Below are positions 23,979-29,296 of a stretch of 29,877 bases of DNA, piece by piece. The notes beneath the pieces are model-generated. The model worked only from the letters and a program-made list of their open reading frames with translations. It ran no database searches and was not told the DNA's origin. This stretch comes from Candidatus Kerfeldbacteria bacterium (lineage in GTDB: Bacteria; Patescibacteriota; Patescibacteriia; SBBC01; CAIJZX01), in NCBI GenBank assembly GCA_016217865.1, contig JACRFO010000024.1, positions 1 to 29,877 of the forward strand, in the 5' to 3' direction. Each line of letters begins with the position of its first letter. Positions within the stretch are counted from its first letter, which is position 1. A program made the position numbers and the translations under genes.

Positions 23979-24506
23979 CTAGCGCCGAAATTTGACGTAG
24001 ATAAGCTCATCAATCAGGCGGCCGCGTTTATTGAAGTGTTTGATCAGCAGCGCTTCACGCTTGAATCCCGCCTTTTCGAGAACGCGGGCAGAACCGATAT
24101 TGAAGCTGAAGACGTGCGCATCAATCCGGACCAGTCGGTAGCGACGAAACGCGTAGGCGGTGAGGAGACGAACTACCCGGGTCATGATCCCCTGCCCCCA
24201 GTACGGCCGGCCTAACCAGTACCCAAGTGTTCCGCGCTGTCCATCAAGGTCAATCCCGATGACACCAACTATATGTCCATCGATTTCAATACCAAGGTGG
24301 AGCCGATCGGCCTTTTTCTGACGGTACTCGCGCTGTAACACCTTCAGCCAACTCGTCGCATGCGACTTACGGTACGGCGACGGCAATGCTGCAGTGTTGC
24401 GGGCAATCCCGCGGTCGTTGGCATACGTGGCCATGGAATCAGCATCCGACAGTCGCAGGTGGCGGAGTGTAATCGGACCAGAGTGGAGGGTGAAGGGCTT
24501 CTTCAT
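23979..24506 (-). CDS. GNAT N-acetyltransferase, RimJ/RimL family
   Basis: LRHLRLSDA, LGYWLGRPYWGQGIMT, NIGSARVLEKAGFKRE; TG-C-TATACT lies 6 nt before the ATG. Confidence 0.9.
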   Translation of the reverse strand: MKKPFTLHSGPITLRHLRLSDADSMATYANDRGIARNTAALPSPYRKSHATSWLKVLQREYRQKKADRLHLGIEIDGHIVGVIGIDLDGQRGTLGYWLGRPYWGQGIMTRVVRLLTAYAFRRYRLVRIDAHVFSFNIGSARVLEKAGFKREALLIKHFNKRGRLIDELIYVKFRR

Positions 24507-24546
24507 GTATTCAGTATAGCAAAAAACATATGACGTTGGTTATGAG

Positions 24547-24562
24547 CCATGATACCCGCCTC
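24547..24562 (-). repeat. 16-nt exact copy of the tRNA-Gln anticodon 3' strand, variable loop and 5' T-stem
   Basis: CCATGATACCCGCCTC is identical to 24781-24796. Confidence 0.85.
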
Positions 24563-24607
24563 TCCCCGTCCGACACCTCTCTCAAAACGCATGTATATTG
24601 GCACGCT

Positions 24608-24708
24608 GCTCCGGGACATGGATTCGCCCTCACTCCTTATTGCGCTGTCGCTCGGGCCGGGGCTTGCGCTCGGCTGCCACCGGCAGCCGAGCTCGCCCTT
24701 CGAATCCA
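24608..24708 (-). repeat. Structured tRNA-Gln-linked element ending in a 19-nt duplicate of the tRNA 3' end
   Basis: 24608-24626 = 24760-24778; 24699-24708 is the reverse complement of 24771-24780; perfect 11-bp hairpin at 24668-24692. Confidence 0.8.
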
Positions 24709-24757
24709 GTAAACCCAAGAGGTCTGCATCGCACCATCAGGGTGCGCTCCAGACCTT

Positions 24758-24831
24758 TGGCTCCGGGACATGGATTCGAACCATGATACCCGCCTCCAAA
24801 GGGCGGTGTCCTACCATTAGACGATCCCGGA
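24758..24831 (-). tRNA. tRNA-Gln (anticodon TTG)
   Basis: Cloverleaf TCCGGGA...CCGCC-CTTTGGA-GGCGG...CATGG-TTCGAAT-CCATG-TCCCGGA-G-CCA. Confidence 0.97.
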
Positions 24832-24854
24832 AAACGAGACAACAAACCGAAGCG

Positions 24855-24883
24855 AGTGTACCAGGTCTAGCCGGATGTTTCAA
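24855..24883 (-). promoter_or_regulatory. Sigma70 promoter of tRNA-Gln
   Basis: TTGAAA (24883-78), 17 nt, TG-G-TACACT (24860-55). Confidence 0.7.
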
Positions 24884-24885
24884 GC

Positions 24886-25806
24886 CTAGACGCGCAGGTA
24901 TCGGCCGATGGCAAACAGCGATGAAATGACGGACAGGCCGCAACCGACCGCCACTTCGAGCCCCAGAATCGTCCAGAGGTGTTCCCGAACGTAGCCGAGG
25001 ACATTGATGTCATAGCCAGCGAAAAACTGCGCGAAGAATGGATTGGTCAGCGACAGAATCGGAACGAGGACGGCGGTAACGAGAATACTAGCCACGAGGC
25101 CATAGAGCAAGCTGGTGATCACGAACGGCCCACGGACGAAAGCATCAGAAGCGCCGACGAGTTTCATGATCCCGATTTCTTCCCGCTGCGAATAGATTGC
25201 GACGCGGATGGTGTTGAAGACCATCAGAATAGCAATTACCGCAAAGAGCAGTGTTAGCCAAAGAGTGGCGACCTGGACGCGGTTGACGATCAGTGACAGG
25301 CGACTAATAACCGTTTGGTTCGTTTGGAAATTATTTCCCGTGTCTTCGATAATGGATTGGTACTTTGGGTCTTTCAAGGTATTCGCAATCGCTCCATACC
25401 CGTCGAGCGTCTTCGAGGTGATGACCAGGCCAGCTCCGAGCGGATTATCGCCAAGCGCGTCGATTGCGGCATCAACGAGCCCTTTATCAACTGCCGACTT
25501 CTTGAGTTCTTGCAAGTGCTCGGCCCGCGTGATTAGGCGGATAGACTGCACTTCAGGTTTGCGGAGGAGTTCCTGACGGATTTGGTCAACGCGCTGTTCC
25601 GAGGTAGTCGGGATGAAGTAGACAGACAGGTCAACTTTTTGCCGCACGGCCGTGAGCGTCTGTTGCCCGACCACGTTCAACCCGGAGACCAGGCTCATCA
25701 AGAACAGGTTCAGCACGACAATCAGCACGGTAATCAACGATAGCCAAATATTCCGGAAGAAGTTCTGGAAGCCGAAGGTGATCATTCGCCAGAGCGTCAC
25801 AAACAT
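24886..25806 (-). CDS. ftsX: Cell division ABC permease FtsX
   Basis: RNIWLSLITV, KVDLSVYF, DNPLGA, VFNTIRVAIYSQREEIGIMKLVGASDAFVRGPF. Confidence 0.95.
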   Translation of the reverse strand: MFVTLWRMITFGFQNFFRNIWLSLITVLIVVLNLFLMSLVSGLNVVGQQTLTAVRQKVDLSVYFIPTTSEQRVDQIRQELLRKPEVQSIRLITRAEHLQELKKSAVDKGLVDAAIDALGDNPLGAGLVITSKTLDGYGAIANTLKDPKYQSIIEDTGNNFQTNQTVISRLSLIVNRVQVATLWLTLLFAVIAILMVFNTIRVAIYSQREEIGIMKLVGASDAFVRGPFVITSLLYGLVASILVTAVLVPILSLTNPFFAQFFAGYDINVLGYVREHLWTILGLEVAVGCGLSVISSLFAIGRYLRV

Positions 25807-25809
25807 AGA

Positions 25810-26490
25810 TCAGAGGAGATATTTACCGGCCTGTTGATCAGCAATGACGTGACCATGGTCGAGGGTGATGACCCGTTTGTGCAGCATGTTCACAATCTCA
25901 CGATTATGGGTGACGAGAACAACCGTAGTCCCGAATTCGTTGATCTTCTTCAACAGGGCAATGATTTCCTGGGCATTGATTGAATCAAGGTTGCCGGTCG
26001 GTTCATCTGCTACTAGCAGTTTAGGACGATGGACCAGCGCCCGAGCGATGACCACGCGCTGCTGTTCGCCGCCGGAGACCTGGTCGGGATACCGATCCAT
26101 CTTCTGCTCCAGGCCGACAATCTTCAATACTTGTGGAACGACGCTCTTGATCCGAGTCGCGCGTTCGCCGGCGACTTCGAGGGCAAACGCAACATTCTCA
26201 AAGAGTGTCTTCTTTGGAAGCAATTTGAAATCTTGAAAAACGACACCAATCTGACGGCGTAAGGTAGGTATTTCGTGGTGTTTGATGTGGGTAATGTTCC
26301 AACCGCCGATCGTAATGTGACCTTTGTCGGCTTTTTCTTCGGCGATAATGAGCTTGGCGAATGTCGTCTTGCCCGAACCAGATTGTCCGACGATGGAAAC
26401 GAACTCCCCTGCTTCGATGTTCACCGAGACATCCTCCAGTCCAACGTTGCGCCGCTGGTACGTTTTTGTGACGTGTTCGAAGGTGACCAT
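25810..26490 (-). CDS. ftsE: Cell division ATP-binding protein FtsE
   Basis: GQSGSGKT, IGVVFQDFKLL, VSGGEQQRV, ADEPTGNLD, VTH. Start set at ATG 26490. Confidence 0.96.
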   Translation of the reverse strand: MVTFEHVTKTYQRRNVGLEDVSVNIEAGEFVSIVGQSGSGKTTFAKLIIAEEKADKGHITIGGWNITHIKHHEIPTLRRQIGVVFQDFKLLPKKTLFENVAFALEVAGERATRIKSVVPQVLKIVGLEQKMDRYPDQVSGGEQQRVVIARALVHRPKLLVADEPTGNLDSINAQEIIALLKKINEFGTTVVLVTHNREIVNMLHKRVITLDHGHVIADQQAGKYLL

Positions 26491-26494
26491 ACCG

Positions 26495-28090
26495 TTACGA
26501 CCAGGTAAAATTCTTCCAGGCCCAGGAGACGAGGCTAGCAGCTTCGGTAAAGCGTGTGGCCGAGCTCGCTGAACCAAGCAGCGAAACGACGATTTGTGCG
26601 CCCTGGGCATTTTTCACACGCACGACATACGTGTATTTCGACTCATTGATGTATCCCGTTTTTCCGCCGGTAACGGTAATGCCATTATTCCTCGTCAGTA
26701 ACGTGTCAGTCGTCTTGACGGTGTGACGACCACTGCGTGACGCGTAGAACGTGTAGGAGGACCTCGTCGTGACGTAGCGAATCGGCTCGTAGGTATTGAA
26801 TGCCTTCGCCGCCATGATGGCCACGTCTTTGGCCGTCGAGACGTTCCCCGGGTCGAGACCACTCGGCTCGACGAACGTGGTATCAGTCATCCCCCAGGCA
26901 GCCGCCTTGGCGTTCATCCGGGCCACAAACTCGGTCCGAGTGAGTCCAGCCGCCCGGACGAGGGCACTCGCGCCGTTGTTGGCCGAACCCACGAGGGTAG
27001 CGTAGAACAGGTCGCGGAGTTGTACGGTGTCCCCACTCCGGAGGGTTAAGTTATTGTAACCATATGGTTTTCCCGCCGCATCTTTTCCCGTCCCGTCGTT
27101 CGCGTTGTACACGAATGTCGCTTTCATGTTCGGCTGGGTGTCGAGAAATACGACCGCAGTCATCAACTTCGTTAAACTGGCGATAGAATGACGAGAAACC
27201 GCATTTTTCTCTACCAACACCGTACCGGTTGCGGCGTCAACCACCCGGTATGCTGTCGCGCTTAACGTCGGTGTCGGGGCGGTCGCTGCAGCCGTCACTG
27301 TCAGTTTTGGAATACTTTCGGTCTTACTCGCAACCACAGGCTGGACCGGGGTGACGGGCGCGGCCACGTATGGTGAGACCGTCACCTTCGTTAACCCTTT
27401 GTTTGTTGCTTGGAGCTTGTTGTATGCAGCCCACGACAGATCGACAACCCGACCGGCCGGTTGTCCCCAGCGAGAAATAATTTTAACATTGACGCTCTTG
27501 CCGTTCGCGACGTTTTTCACCGTCACAGTGCTACCGACAGGAAAGTCGTTCGAGGTCCCGTGTAACACCGGGTAACGTTTTGAGCAGTAATTCTTGCAGT
27601 ACCACGACGCAATCCCCTCTTGGGTATTCCGATCTTCGAGGACCATGACGTACCCATCGAGAGACGAGACGCCGGCTTGCCACTTCTTCGTAGCGGCATT
27701 GAGTTTCGATGGCAACTTTGACCACGCTGACGTAGTCCGGTCGTACAGCCAGACCGACCGTGACCACATACCCGGTGTATCAGGTAAAGCAACGGCCAGT
27801 TGGTACTTTGAGGTATCGAGCGCCGTGATACCTGAAACGTATAACCGGTAATACGACCCAAGGAGTTTCGTTGACGGTGGCAGTGCTGGGAGGGCGTCGC
27901 TGCTGGGTTTCCACGTGACATCGGCTGGACCGGTCAGAACACCTGGGAAGACCGTTACGTTAGCGCCTCCATCCAGGCGGAGCGTCCAGCCGCTTGAACG
28001 AAGGGCATCGTCAAAGTGGTATGGACTAATCTCTTCGGAAGCCTGGGCAGGCGGCGCGAACGCCAACAGGCTTGCCAGAAGGATGGTCAA
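26495..28090 (-). CDS. Secreted fusion: beta-sandwich domain + RlpA-like double-psi beta-barrel + peptidase S11 (D-Ala-D-Ala carboxy/endopeptidase)
   Basis: GIASWY...FPVGSTVTVKN..NGKSV.V.I...RVVDLS (RlpA-like); SIASLTK, SAN, GGKTG (S11 SxxK/SxN/KTG). The start is uncertain: TTG 28090 is assumed and GTG 28159 is an alternative. Confidence 0.85.
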   Translation of the reverse strand: MTILLASLLAFAPPAQASEEISPYHFDDALRSSGWTLRLDGGANVTVFPGVLTGPADVTWKPSSDALPALPPSTKLLGSYYRLYVSGITALDTSKYQLAVALPDTPGMWSRSVWLYDRTTSAWSKLPSKLNAATKKWQAGVSSLDGYVMVLEDRNTQEGIASWYCKNYCSKRYPVLHGTSNDFPVGSTVTVKNVANGKSVNVKIISRWGQPAGRVVDLSWAAYNKLQATNKGLTKVTVSPYVAAPVTPVQPVVASKTESIPKLTVTAAATAPTPTLSATAYRVVDAATGTVLVEKNAVSRHSIASLTKLMTAVVFLDTQPNMKATFVYNANDGTGKDAAGKPYGYNNLTLRSGDTVQLRDLFYATLVGSANNGASALVRAAGLTRTEFVARMNAKAAAWGMTDTTFVEPSGLDPGNVSTAKDVAIMAAKAFNTYEPIRYVTTRSSYTFYASRSGRHTVKTTDTLLTRNNGITVTGGKTGYINESKYTYVVRVKNAQGAQIVVSLLGSASSATRFTEAASLVSWAWKNFTWS

Positions 28091-28100
28091 ACCGTATACT
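28072..28100 (+). promoter_or_regulatory. Sigma70 promoter of tRNA-Gly
   Basis: TTGCCA (28072-77), 17 nt, TATACT (28095-100). Confidence 0.75.
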
Positions 28101-28111
28101 GCGACTCGTTG

Positions 28112-28185
28112 GCGGGTATGGTTTAGTGGTAAAACGCGACCTTCCCAAGGTTGAGTCACGGGTTCGATTCCCGTTACCCGCTCCA
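28112..28185 (+). tRNA. tRNA-Gly (anticodon CCC)
   Basis: GCGGGTA...CGACC-TTCCCAA-GGTTG...ACGGG-TTCGATT-CCCGT-TACCCGC-T-CCA. Confidence 0.97.
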
Positions 28186-28294
28186 GCAGTGAATGCAAAA
28201 ACGAACCACGTCTATCCACACGGGGCGCTGTTGCGTTCGCTATGCGTGTTGGTTTTCGGCTAGGCATCGGTTACTGACTGTACCACATTTACAG

Positions 28295-29080
28295 CTAGCC
28301 GACAAGGTGGCGCCGAATGAAGGCTAGAACCTGCTGCGCGATGTATTCAACTGCTTGGGCGTCGCGAAAAGGACGATGGGTTTGGACAGGGATGATGACG
28401 CTCTCCTTCGCTGCAGACCCGAGTGTTTCCATGAGTCGCTGACTGTTCTGCGGGCCAACAACTGCGTCATGACTGCTCGAGAGAATCAGCGCAGGTTGGT
28501 GAATCTCCGACAGGATTGGAACAATAGACCTCCGGGCAAAGGTCGCGGTTGCCAGAATACCATTGATTGGCCAGGCGTCGGTCGAACCCATTTGTTGCCC
28601 CCGCTCCCGCTCGGCCGGCGTCAGGCCTTTCTTCGGGTAGTACGGCGTCACGAGGCGCATGAGTCGCAACAGTACGCCTTGTAAGACGCCGCCGCCCGAG
28701 TATGAAAGGGCGGTGTTGACGAGGATTAATCCGTCAATCTCCGACGGGTGTCGGTGAGCCAGGTCGAGGGCCAGCACCCCACCAAAGGACGATCCCATTA
28801 TAATGGTCCGGCGGCAGCGGGACCGAAGCTCCTGCCAACCTGACTCGACCGATGCTTGCCAGTCAGTCACAGTCGTTTGTCGTAGCGCCGCTTTCCCCTG
28901 GCCATGACCAGCCAGGCGCAACCCCAGCACGGTTAAACCCTGTTGCTGCAATAGTTCGGCACATTGACGGTAGTCGCCAATACTGCCGCCGTAACCGTGA
29001 ATAATCAAACAACCCGTCTCGCCTCCAGGCAAGAGAAAGGATTCAGCGGCGGCGGTCACAGGAGTTGACGGGACGGTCAT
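28295..29080 (-). CDS. Alpha/beta-hydrolase carboxylesterase (YvaK/Est30-like)
   Basis: IIHGYGG, LAGHG, GSSFGG nucleophile elbow, SHDAVV (Asp), QTH (His). Confidence 0.9.
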   Translation of the reverse strand: MTVPSTPVTAAAESFLLPGGETGCLIIHGYGGSIGDYRQCAELLQQQGLTVLGLRLAGHGQGKAALRQTTVTDWQASVESGWQELRSRCRRTIIMGSSFGGVLALDLAHRHPSEIDGLILVNTALSYSGGGVLQGVLLRLMRLVTPYYPKKGLTPAERERGQQMGSTDAWPINGILATATFARRSIVPILSEIHQPALILSSSHDAVVGPQNSQRLMETLGSAAKESVIIPVQTHRPFRDAQAVEYIAQQVLAFIRRHLVG

Positions 29081-29093
29081 GGTGCGGTATCGT
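29065..29093 (+). promoter_or_regulatory. Sigma70 promoter of tRNA-Thr
   Basis: TTGACG (29065-70), 17 nt, TATCGT (29088-93); the -35 lies inside the first codons of the divergent esterase. Confidence 0.7.
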
Positions 29094-29105
29094 GAGTGCT
29101 GATTT

Positions 29106-29180
29106 GCCGGTGTAGCTCAGTGGTAGAGCAATGCTTTCGTAAAGCAGAGGTCGTCGGTTCAATCCCGACCACCGGCTCCA
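29106..29180 (+). tRNA. tRNA-Thr (anticodon CGT)
   Basis: GCCGGTG...TGCT-TTCGTAA-AGCA...GTCGG-TTCAATC-CCGAC-CACCGGC-T-CCA. Confidence 0.96.
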
Positions 29181-29296
29181 GAGGGATTGAAGGGCAGCAG
29201 CGAGCGACGCAGAAGCGAGCGATCGCTGAGTTGCCAGTGGCAAGTCGGCGCTGCCCAGGATCAATCCCGACCACCGGCTCCAGAGGGATTGAAGGG
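29159..29296 (+). repeat. 36-nt direct repeat of the tRNA-Thr 3' end plus flank, enclosing a 66-nt structured insert
   Basis: 29159-29194 = 29261-29296 (TCAATCCCGACCACCGGCTCCAGAGGGATTGAAGGG). Confidence 0.9.

Follow-up and report, generated by a model that had tools for sequence, protein, structure and literature searches.

The elements that follow the tRNA-Gln and tRNA-Thr genes of the window (the whole stretch of 29,877 nt analyzed here) are members of one large family of tRNA-linked modules, and their architecture is that of the E. coli tRNA-linked repeats (TLRs) and RtT RNA. They are co-oriented with their tRNA genes, and matched arms enclose a conserved fold. We give a probability of about one half to the reading that both are TLR/RtT-type modules and most likely tRNA-trailer RNA, read through from the tRNA gene and matured in the manner of a tRNA 3' end; transcription, processing and upkeep of the arms are the parts that we infer. 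What favors trailer RNA is the parallel with RtT and RrA/B/F, together with the retention of modules at the same tRNAs across genera. The earlier note had described the two elements as one family with a shared architecture, and every feature that it listed was located in place (Table 1). Its observation that two core motifs occur in opposite order was likewise borne out, and reflects two covarying subtypes, type A (the Gln copy) and type B (the Thr copy).

Table 1. Coordinates in the window of the Gln and Thr modules, their parts and the neighboring tRNA genes.
Feature	Position	Strand	Support
tRNA-Gln(UUG), type A host gene	24758..24831	-	ARAGORN; Rfam tRNA
Hairpin spacer from tRNA-Gln to element, 41 nt, unique	24717..24757	-	MFE -23.1, z -4.1
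Type A module, full covariance-model match	24606..24713	-	R1 105.8 bits, E 2e-23 genome-wide; fold z -3.0
Gln anti-T arm TGGATTCGAA, reverse complement of tRNA-Gln TTCGAATCCA; 5' strand of closing helix P1	24699..24708	-	
Gln P2-P3 long hairpin, GGGC...GCCC	24660..24698	-	apical CTGCC-GGT-GGCAG at 24674-24686
Gln P4 variable hairpin, CCC-GAGCGAC...GGAGTGA-GGG	24627..24656	-	
Gln 3' copy, exact 19/19 of tRNA-Gln positions 56-74	24608..24626 (= 24760-24778)	-	repeat comparison
tRNA-Gly(CCC), element-free here	28112..28185	+	ARAGORN
tRNA-Thr(CGU), type B host gene	29106..29180	+	ARAGORN; Rfam tRNA
Type B module, full model match	29177..29282	+	R2 115.3 bits, E 7e-28 genome-wide; fold z -3.2
Thr anti-T arm GGGATTGAA, reverse complement of TTCAATCCC	29183..29191	+	
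Thr helix GGGCAGC/GCTGCCC, enclosing hairpins a and b	29192-29198 / 29250-29256 (span 29192..29256)	+	
Thr hairpin a, contains CGAGCGAC	29198-29228	+	
Thr hairpin b, TTGCC-AGT-GGCAA	29228-29246	+	
Thr 3' copy, 22 nt exact, tRNA-Thr positions 55-76 including CCA	29261..29282	+	
Start of a second unit at Thr, truncated (GAGGGATTGAAGGG)	29283..29296	+	39-nt repeat, 38/39

Modules and their host tRNAs in the source genome

The source genome (G000) belongs to Kerfeldbacteria within the Patescibacteria and is an 836-kb assembly, 89% complete, of a ~1-Mb genome. Genome-wide searches with covariance models showed that 11 of its 41 tRNA genes (~27%) have an intact same-strand module directly 3', eight of type A and three of type B. 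There are 13 copies in total, 11 of them directly 3' of a tRNA; solo copies without a tRNA link lie on contig C56 and at C90:14936-15047. Each module is gene-less, ~85-115 nt long, and is made up of an antisense copy of the T-loop/T-stem 3' strand of its own tRNA, a conserved three-way junction and a copy of that tRNA's 3' end, which runs from the T-loop to the CCA over 17-22 nt.

These ends track the tRNA that each module follows, as the earlier note had proposed from the two loci. In nine of the 11 tRNA-linked copies in G000 the 3' copy matches its cognate tRNA over 17-22 nt, and in the remaining two, with one mismatch each, over 15 and 10 nt, whereas matches to non-cognate tRNAs reach at most 10 nt. 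At 5-9 bp in most cases, the anti-T helix is short, and its tRNA-specific part consists mainly of tRNA positions 59-65; for contiguous anti-T pairing the value is 4.9 when both arms come from one copy and 1.6 when they come from different copies (permutation p ~0.0006). Given the covariance-model E values, the placement of the copies 3' of tRNAs and their cognate-matched 3' copies, the Gln and Thr elements are not chance likenesses.

The type A model starts 44 nt from tRNA-Gln, within the typical spacing range of 40-54 nt. The Gln 3' copy covers the T-loop, the T-stem 3' strand and the acceptor 3' strand; it has lost the CCA, and it pairs in P1 as the 3' strand except for an unpaired tail. The Thr module has no spacer, its first 4 nt overlapping the CCA end of tRNA-Thr. 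A single unit there is followed by 14 nt of the next, a fractional tandem iteration like those of E. coli tyrT and of the relative G026. Partial tRNA copies also occur: a tRNA-Gln fragment lies nearby at 24547-24562, and a 45-nt partial copy of the Pro-cgg tRNA on contig C42.

Distribution, fold and spacing in relatives

We searched 101 genomes of the class and fetched 56 loci from relatives (28 type A and 28 type B). Type A occurs in 26 of the 101 genomes and type B in 21, with a union of 37, and all 12 genomes of the source genome's own family are positive for type A or B. A co-oriented tRNA lies directly 5' of 47 of the 56 fetched loci (25/28 for type A, 22/28 for type B), and their hosts comprise >20 tRNA species with matched arms each time. 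The tie to tRNA 3' flanks and the further tRNA-linked copies that the earlier note had anticipated are thus found both in G000 and across the class. A phylum-wide sample gave only weak matches to the type A model R1, in 5 of 150 genomes, and the subtype thus hardly extends beyond the class. An exact-pattern scan of genome contigs was too permissive and returned mostly chance matches in high-GC genomes, with four real Patescibacteria/Kerfeldbacteria loci.

Presence varies at a single tRNA, as had been suggested. The statement that tRNA-Gly lacks the element is correct for tRNA-Gly(CCC) of G000 but not for the same tRNA in three relatives (G001, G002 and G016), which carry a type A element there. 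Alignment of empty and filled tRNA-Gly sites across relatives yielded no insertion boundaries, the flanks being too diverged, and the duplicate tRNA genes of the assembly (Arg-tcg, Ser-tga, Gln, Asn) sit in unrelated contexts and so provide no empty/filled pair. In a search of sequencing runs, this DNA turned up in no RNA run and in one DNA run, that of the source groundwater metagenome. Among the contigs of that metagenome we found no joint that skips the Gln or Thr element, the sole variant being the C56 paralogue.

In type A, 92% of cells are paired and 17 of 21 pairs show changes on both sides; the figures for type B are 94% and 25 of 28, and none of 500 shuffles did as well for either type. 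The Arg-tcg module displays a double compensatory change in P2 between G000 and G003, from GGGCC/GGCCC to GGATC/GATCC. When copies at same-isoacceptor tRNAs are compared between species and between genera, identity is 81-87% over the element, 26-41% in the spacer and 44-52% in the downstream 80 nt. G-U pairs are rare in the helices (2-3%), and the counts of G-U versus A-C, 25 versus 22 in type A and 19 versus 10 in type B, give no clear strand bias. Both properties would also be compatible with a hairpin in DNA, or with arms whose complementarity is maintained by templated repair.

Spacing between tRNA and element is tight, with a median of 47 nt and a similar distance in E. coli, over spacers of unconserved sequence. 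A hairpin with a T-run is found in only nine of 64 spacers, and good intrinsic terminators precede some copies (Asn on C99 and the C56 copy). Promoter-like sites lie upstream of both tRNA-Gln and tRNA-Thr, and no same-strand promoter-like site was found directly before either element. The G026 array has two units and then a truncated third. The Trp copy in G000 retains a base that has since changed in tRNA-Trp, indicating that this copy is old and not freshly templated.

Proposed trailer RNA and rival readings

The module is a conserved three-way-junction domain, closed by antisense and sense T-loop/T-stem copies of the upstream tRNA and ending in that tRNA's acceptor 3' strand and CCA. As trailer RNA, it would be made when transcription that starts at the tRNA promoter continues through the short hairpin behind the tRNA. 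The promoter-like sites upstream of both tRNAs, the small share of spacers with a hairpin and T-run, and the tight, E. coli-like spacing speak for this reading. Because module and tRNA share their terminal ~20 nt, the tRNA 3'-end machinery would make the module's 3' end too, releasing a stable structured RNA. Unequal crossing-over between 3'-end repeats in the DNA could generate the arrays, and the arms may be kept matched by selection on the closing helix with occasional gene conversion or templated repair from the adjoining tRNA gene. Against trailer RNA, some copies lie behind good intrinsic terminators, the helices have no clear strand bias, and the presence and absence at tRNA-Gly(CCC), the solo and core-only copies and the arrays look like the dynamics of repeats or mobile DNA.

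A possible, if rather doubtful, alternative is a non-autonomous mobile DNA element (MITE-like or mini-integrative), inserted at or behind tRNA genes under T-loop guidance by an enzyme acting in trans, with arms rebuilt from the target and the fold serving as a DNA hairpin or recombination site. Such an element would suit the range of >20 host tRNA species, to each of which the arms are fitted, the patchy presence at one tRNA within the genus (Gly-ccc), tandem arrays with truncated last units, solo and core-only copies, and helices without a G-U preference over A-C. A repeat from T-loop to CCA, like T-loop-class att sites, and a ~47-nt distance that is fixed although the spacer sequence is unconserved also argue for it. 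Other inserts share the tRNA 3'-end repeat, for example a GIY-YIG gene at tRNA-Lys, another point on its side; none of the 28 type A loci in relatives had a GIY-YIG gene within 1.5 kb, and an Rfam scan of GIY-YIG loci returned tRNAs only. The earlier note had looked to a tyrosine recombinase or an HUH/RAYT enzyme in trans, a proposal that the gene content of G000 speaks against. Searches of this 89% complete genome found no Y1/RAYT transposase (PF01797), TnpB/Cas12-type, IS110, reverse transcriptase or phage-type integrase gene; it has one large serine recombinase, and its sole tyrosine recombinase (PF00589) is Xer-like and lies on C80, near no module copy. Mobility is further opposed by same-isoacceptor copies that are conserved across genera like tRNAs while their flanks are randomized, by the age of the Trp copy, and by the arrangement itself, since an inverted arm and a 20-nt direct copy with the element between them fit no known transposition chemistry. 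To our knowledge, movement of an E. coli TLR has never been observed, which also counts against this alternative.

Two further readings carry much less weight. The modules could be scars of prophages or islands that a tyrosine integrase inserted in the tRNA T-loop and that were later deleted, leaving attL and attR ~100 bp apart, an already disfavored view that we consider highly improbable. Integration into tRNA genes classically leaves partial tRNA copies (PMC9897764), and the further ones nearby (Gln at 24547-24562, Pro-cgg on C42) count in its favor, as does a repeat covering the T-loop to the 3' end; yet what separates the repeats is not random residue but one of two conserved folds that covary and recur at dozens of tRNAs and genomes, an inverted T-loop copy is unexpected from integration, and phage-type integrases were not found in G000. 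Less credible still is a guide-RNA-like module, in which a scaffold bears a 20-nt 3' guide with the sequence of the tRNA gene 3' end and would home an RNA-guided nuclease or transposase to tRNA genes. The modules do have this form, with a folded scaffold and, behind it, a 3' segment whose sequence is that of a DNA target, and a conserved GGTT upstream of the target may be an adjacent motif, but G000 yielded no TnpB/Cas12-type or IS110 gene, and the first 5-9 nt of the putative guide are tied up in P1. TLRs are present in E. coli K-12, where, as far as we know, no RNA-guided effector is linked to them, which again weighs against guiding.

Two subtypes, occurrence at about a quarter of the tRNAs of a streamlined genome, strong covariation and cross-genus retention argue that the TLR design is selected and far wider than its Rfam family suggests. 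It is conceivable, though on balance unlikely, that TLR-type modules form one ancient cross-phylum class, from Enterobacteria to Patescibacteria, with arms re-templated by an undescribed copying mechanism from the tRNA that each follows, or else that they have a conserved role in tRNA 3'-end metabolism. If either version were true, the covarying, abundant modules of Patescibacteria would give a comparative handle on the 45-year-old TLR puzzle. The dozens of diverged examples can serve to establish the parts that matter: the tRNA-matched closing helix, the TTGCC-N3-GGCAA hairpin and the ~47-nt spacing. The modules are also unannotated structured DNA, which annotation pipelines could take for tRNA fragments or att sites.

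Comparison with known systems

E. coli TLRs have been known since 1978 (Egan and Landy, 1978; Rudd, 1999; as cited in PMC8144298), and no function or origin has been established for them, three rrn-linked sRNAs aside (PMC8144298). [quoted passage not shown] An E. coli unit consists, in order, of an anti-arm GGGGAAGGAT, GAGAAG, a GTTGCC-GCA-GGCAAC hairpin, GGCCCGA...GCGAG and the last 19 nt of tRNA-Tyr. The arms of E. coli TLRs match Tyr, Pro, Ser and Lys tRNAs, and the tyrT-tyrV locus has four full units and a fraction.

Like these TLRs, the modules described here lie directly 3' of, and co-oriented with, many different tRNAs with matched arms, ~50 nt from the tRNA, and form tandem units with a fractional last one. 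Both have (T/G)(C/A)GAAG after the arm, a TTGC(C)-N3-(G)GCAA hairpin, GGCCCGA...GCGAG before the copy, and a terminal 18-22 nt that is the host tRNA's own 3' end; in the RtT consensus structure, as here, the fold is closed by pairing of the copy's T-loop/T-stem part with an antisense arm on the 5' side. Type B has the topology of the Rfam RtT consensus, whereas type A differs from E. coli TLRs in branch order, with the TGCC hairpin first and the small P4 last. The T-stem 5' half is present as a direct copy in E. coli units and absent from the modules, and the copy of the tRNA 3' end starts at position 58/59 there and at 55/56 here. Unlike E. coli, the host is a small Patescibacteria genome with modules at ~27% of its tRNAs.

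The suggestion that the element is undescribed is therefore not supported by its architecture (RF00391; PMC8144298), although RF00391 itself scores no copy: it (gathering threshold 45 bits) gave no match at E<=1 in the window region or at E<=10 genome-wide, and an Rfam scan of the window region at E<=1 returned tRNAs only. R1, searched against 1.5 kb of E. coli tyrT/V, aligned full-length and in register to all four units (E 0.001-0.02), and had no match when searched against the whole E. coli genome; the top two matches of R2 in E. coli were TLR units, at a non-significant E of 0.2-0.4. Since neither RF00391 nor R1/R2 cross-detects at genome scale, we regard the modules as a distinct version of the TLR kind and make no claim of common descent with E. 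coli TLRs. Our literature search found no description of such modules in Patescibacteria.

Other systems share single traits. As cited in PMC8144298, 3'ETS-leuZ is a functional RNA excised from the part of a tRNA primary transcript that lies behind the tRNA; it is a single-locus sponge without the tRNA-matched arms or shared core of the modules. REP/BIME/REPIN-RAYT repeats and MITEs are also short, gene-less, structured, multi-copy intergenic sequences, but the modules are strictly tRNA-linked and co-oriented, have termini copied from the adjoining gene, fold into a three-way junction and not a simple palindrome, and have no RAYT gene. IS200/IS605 elements with a TnpB guide RNA differ in that neither a TnpA (Y1) nor a TnpB gene was found in G000. 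CIME-type or T-loop-class integrative elements likewise leave the tRNA intact and flank their insert with a direct tRNA 3'-end repeat from T-loop to CCA, whereas the modules are only ~100 bp long, with a conserved fold, an inverted T-loop copy and no cognate integrase. Such CIMEs and tyrosine-integrase islands have one att specificity per family, while the modules span >20 tRNA specificities within one family.

Modules behind tRNA genes in the window's genome and its relatives

Three tRNA genes were called in the window by ARAGORN, and the features that the earlier note described behind two of them are all present, with nothing of the kind behind tRNA-Gly, as it had said (table). The two elements represent the subtypes, type A (the Gln copy) and type B (the Thr copy), of a module of ~85-115 nt with an anti-T arm, a three-way-junction core and a 3' copy of its own tRNA's 3' end.

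Parts of the two window elements and of the E. coli K-12 tyrT-tyrV repeat unit, in order
Feature	Positions	Strand	Description
tRNA-Gln(UUG)	24758-24831	minus	ARAGORN call
tRNA-Gly(CCC)	28112-28185		ARAGORN call
tRNA-Thr(CGU)	29106-29180		ARAGORN call
Gln element, part 1		minus	hairpin, 41 nt, nearest the tRNA
Gln element, part 2	24699-24708	minus	TGGATTCGAA, exact reverse complement of tRNA-Gln TTCGAATCCA
Gln element, part 3		minus	helix GGGC...GCCC, cap CTGCC-GGT-GGCAG
Gln element, part 4		minus	CCC-GAGCGAC...-GGG
Gln element, part 5	24608-24626	minus	copy of tRNA positions 56-74, 19/19
Thr element, part 1	29183-29191		GGGATTGAA
Thr element, part 2			GGGCAGC/GCTGCCC around CGAGCGAC-containing hairpin and TTGCC-AGT-GGCAA hairpin
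Thr element, part 3	29261-29282		22-nt copy of tRNA-Thr positions 55-76
Thr element, part 4	29283-29296		first 14 nt of a second unit
tyrT-tyrV unit, part 1			GGGGAAGGAT, reverse complement of tRNA-Tyr positions 59-68
tyrT-tyrV unit, part 2			GAGAAG
tyrT-tyrV unit, part 3			hairpin GTTGCC-GCA-GGCAAC
tyrT-tyrV unit, part 4			GGCCCGAAGGGCGA...GCGAG
tyrT-tyrV unit, part 5			AATCCTTCCCCCACCACCA, last 19 nt of tRNA-Tyr

The modules are one family, tied to tRNAs. The window is contig C122 of the genome G000, 836 kb in 127 contigs and 89% complete. Further tRNA-linked copies were sought in the 3' flank of each of its 41 tRNA genes, and 11 are intact: type A behind Arg-tct, Arg-tcg, Glu-ttc, Ser-tga, Gln-ttg (two genes), Leu-cag and Leu-gag, and type B behind Asp, Trp and Thr-cgt. 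An armless type B copy (C90:14936-15047) and a decayed left half-module behind tRNA-Asn also occur. Nine of the 11 intact modules have a 3' copy that matches the cognate tRNA over 17-22 nt; in the remaining two, each with one mismatch, the match is 15 and 10 nt. Matches to other tRNAs reach at most 10 nt. Covariance models were built from nine type A copies (R1) and three type B copies (R2). By R1, type A occurs in 26 of the class's 101 genomes, among them 10 of the 11 others in the window's own family; by R2, type B occurs in 21, and 37 of the 101 carry either subtype. Of the loci fetched, 25/28 of type A and 22/28 of type B have a co-oriented tRNA immediately 5' of them; more than 20 tRNA species serve as hosts. 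Across a phylum-wide sample R1 gave only 5/150 weak type A matches. Public records with matches are titled as Candidatus Kerfeldbacteria and 'Patescibacteria group' MAGs.

Several copies depart from this arrangement. A solo type A copy (C56:7394-7500; L011:295-401, minus), ~90% like the window's Gln copy, has no called upstream tRNA and a terminator-like hairpin on each side, recalling the pair of terminators that flanks E. coli rrn tRNA-linked repeats (TLRs); its downstream hairpin is homologous to that behind the window's tRNA-Gln. Type B cores that lack a tRNA 3' copy (C90:14936-15047, 48 nt upstream of tRNA-Lys, and loci L222, L225 and L235) end in CCCAGGAAGAGCAAC. Four isoacceptors are duplicated in G000 in unrelated contexts (contigs C12/C50, C32/C58, C33/C122 and C9/C99; estimated contamination only 0.23%). 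For Arg-tcg, whose two genes are identical (77/77), and Ser-tga, a module follows one gene and none the other; one Asn-gtt gene has the decayed half-module and the other none, and both Gln-ttg genes have a module. In the window, a third tRNA-Gln fragment (24547-24562, minus; wider repeat 24537-24563) spans the anticodon stem to G53, ending exactly at the T-loop, 45 nt past the Gln element's 3' copy and directly upstream of a gene starting at 24506.

Fold, covariation and age

Single copies are predicted to fold into a three-way junction whose closing helix, P1, is formed by the anti-T arm and the T-loop/T-stem section of the 3' copy, leaving the acceptor 3' strand and CCA single-stranded. Covariation is strong in both subtypes, with 92% of cells paired and changes on both sides in 17 of 21 pairs for type A (42 sequences), and 94% and 25 of 28 for type B (35 sequences); in the type A control, none of 500 shuffles came close, nor did any slid register. 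P1 is short (5-9 bp) yet copy-specific: contiguous pairing averages 4.9 within copies versus 1.6 between copies (permutation p ~0.0006). At tRNA position 59 the pair occurs in four forms. G-U pairs are scarce and their excess over A-C is slight (25 versus 22 in type A helices, 19 versus 10 in type B), so that the fold is compatible with a role in RNA or in DNA.

We compared the G000 copies at Arg-tcg, Ser-tga, Trp and Thr-cgt with relatives G003, G007, G006 and G011. At the same isoacceptor, elements are 81-87% identical across species and genera, close to the conservation of the tRNA itself, while spacers (26-41%) and the downstream 80 nt (44-52%) are essentially random. In P2 of Arg-tcg, two species of one genus differ by a double compensatory change. 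At Trp, the G000 copy retains a base that has since changed in its tRNA, and that G006 still has; the copy is therefore old and has not been continuously re-copied. Together, these comparisons argue for long retention of the modules, in genomes of ~1 Mb, under selection on their fold.

Possible mechanisms: a read-through trailer RNA or a mobile DNA element

The earlier note had left two readings, a cis-acting tRNA 3'-trailer RNA and a non-autonomous mobile element served by an enzyme in trans. The former is the best-supported mechanism, given promoter placement, the scarcity of terminator-like spacers and the E. coli precedent. Promoter-like sites lie upstream of both tRNA-Gln and tRNA-Thr in the window, and none was found directly before either element on the strand it occupies; only 9 of 64 spacers combine a hairpin with a T-run after it, although a stable hairpin forms in 20 of 45. 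The module would be transcribed by read-through from the tRNA promoter, and the tRNA 3'-end machinery, via the shared ~20 nt, would generate the 3' end of the resulting trailer RNA.

A mobile DNA element, the main rival, would account for the many host tRNAs with arms matched to each, for a module at tRNA-Gly(CCC) in G001, G002 and G016 where the window has none, and for arrays, solo copies and core-only copies; the repeat, from T-loop to CCA, also has the extent of classical attachment sites. However, no Y1/RAYT, TnpB, IS110 or reverse transcriptase gene was found in G000 (89% complete), and the only tyrosine recombinase there is Xer-like, alongside one large serine recombinase. We also know of no chemistry that places an inverted arm and a 20-nt direct copy around a core, and since gene conversion between dispersed copies can yield similar cores at different tRNAs, their similarity is no proof of transposition. 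A simple integration scar would not leave such a conserved, covarying core, and that reading is excluded.

Other inserts carry copies of tRNA 3' ends. In the locus at C90:15095-15560 (L042/L044), a gene for an 80-aa GIY-YIG nuclease comes after tRNA-Lys(UUU), and beyond it lie a small hairpin and 19 nt that repeat the 3' end of tRNA-Lys; G009 and G006 have a type A module in place of that gene. Small GIY-YIG genes are multi-copy in 87 of 101 genomes of the class, 16 of 30 fetched loci lying 74-374 nt 3' of a co-oriented tRNA, some with a tRNA-end repeat after the ORF. The large serine recombinase (C90:18474-18908, minus; open frame 521 aa) may be the sign of an integrated element; it lies ~3 kb from the tRNA-Lys/GIY-YIG locus. 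A second, unrelated GC-rich insert of ~135 nt (C62:2360-2500; L006:229-370) sits past the type B element of tRNA-Asp and closes with a further 16 nt repeating that tRNA's 3' end. A 45-nt copy of the 3' part of tRNA-Pro(CGG) (C42:1034-1109), from anticodon stem to CCA, lies 38 nt downstream of it; in a Kerfeldbacteria MAG (L082), a degenerate version behind tRNA-Pro(CGG) precedes a type A module.

Comparison with E. coli tRNA-linked repeats

The 22 TLRs of E. coli K-12 are spread over ten loci in tRNA or rRNA operons and are recognised by a 3' 18-19 bp identical to the 3' end of the immediately upstream gene; those in tRNA operons have no known function, and the three rrn-linked TLRs are sRNAs, which arise when transcription passes a first terminator and are then processed (PMC8144298). 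Reading the K-12 tyrT-tyrV locus part by part, we found that its units contain the parts seen here in an identical order (table), and the architecture, which the earlier note put forward as a candidate undescribed element, is therefore already known as TLR/RtT-type. TLRs at Pro, Ser and Lys tRNAs likewise have arms matching their own host. E. coli TLRs and the modules here also have a similar tRNA-to-element spacing (here a median of 47 nt over 64 copies) and tandem units ending in a fractional one. The Rfam consensus of RtT RNA (RF00391), in which anti-arm and 3' copy form the closing helix and an inner helix, two hairpins and an unpaired CCA-ending tail complete the fold, has the topology of the window's Thr element.

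Scores are low in both directions: RF00391 matches nothing in the whole of G000; R1 aligns full-length and in register, but weakly, with the four tyrT/V units and has no match genome-wide on E. coli; and R2 ranks TLR units first there, at an E of only 0.2-0.4. The elements are thus of the same kind as TLRs while falling outside RF00391 by score, and common descent with the E. coli repeats is possible.
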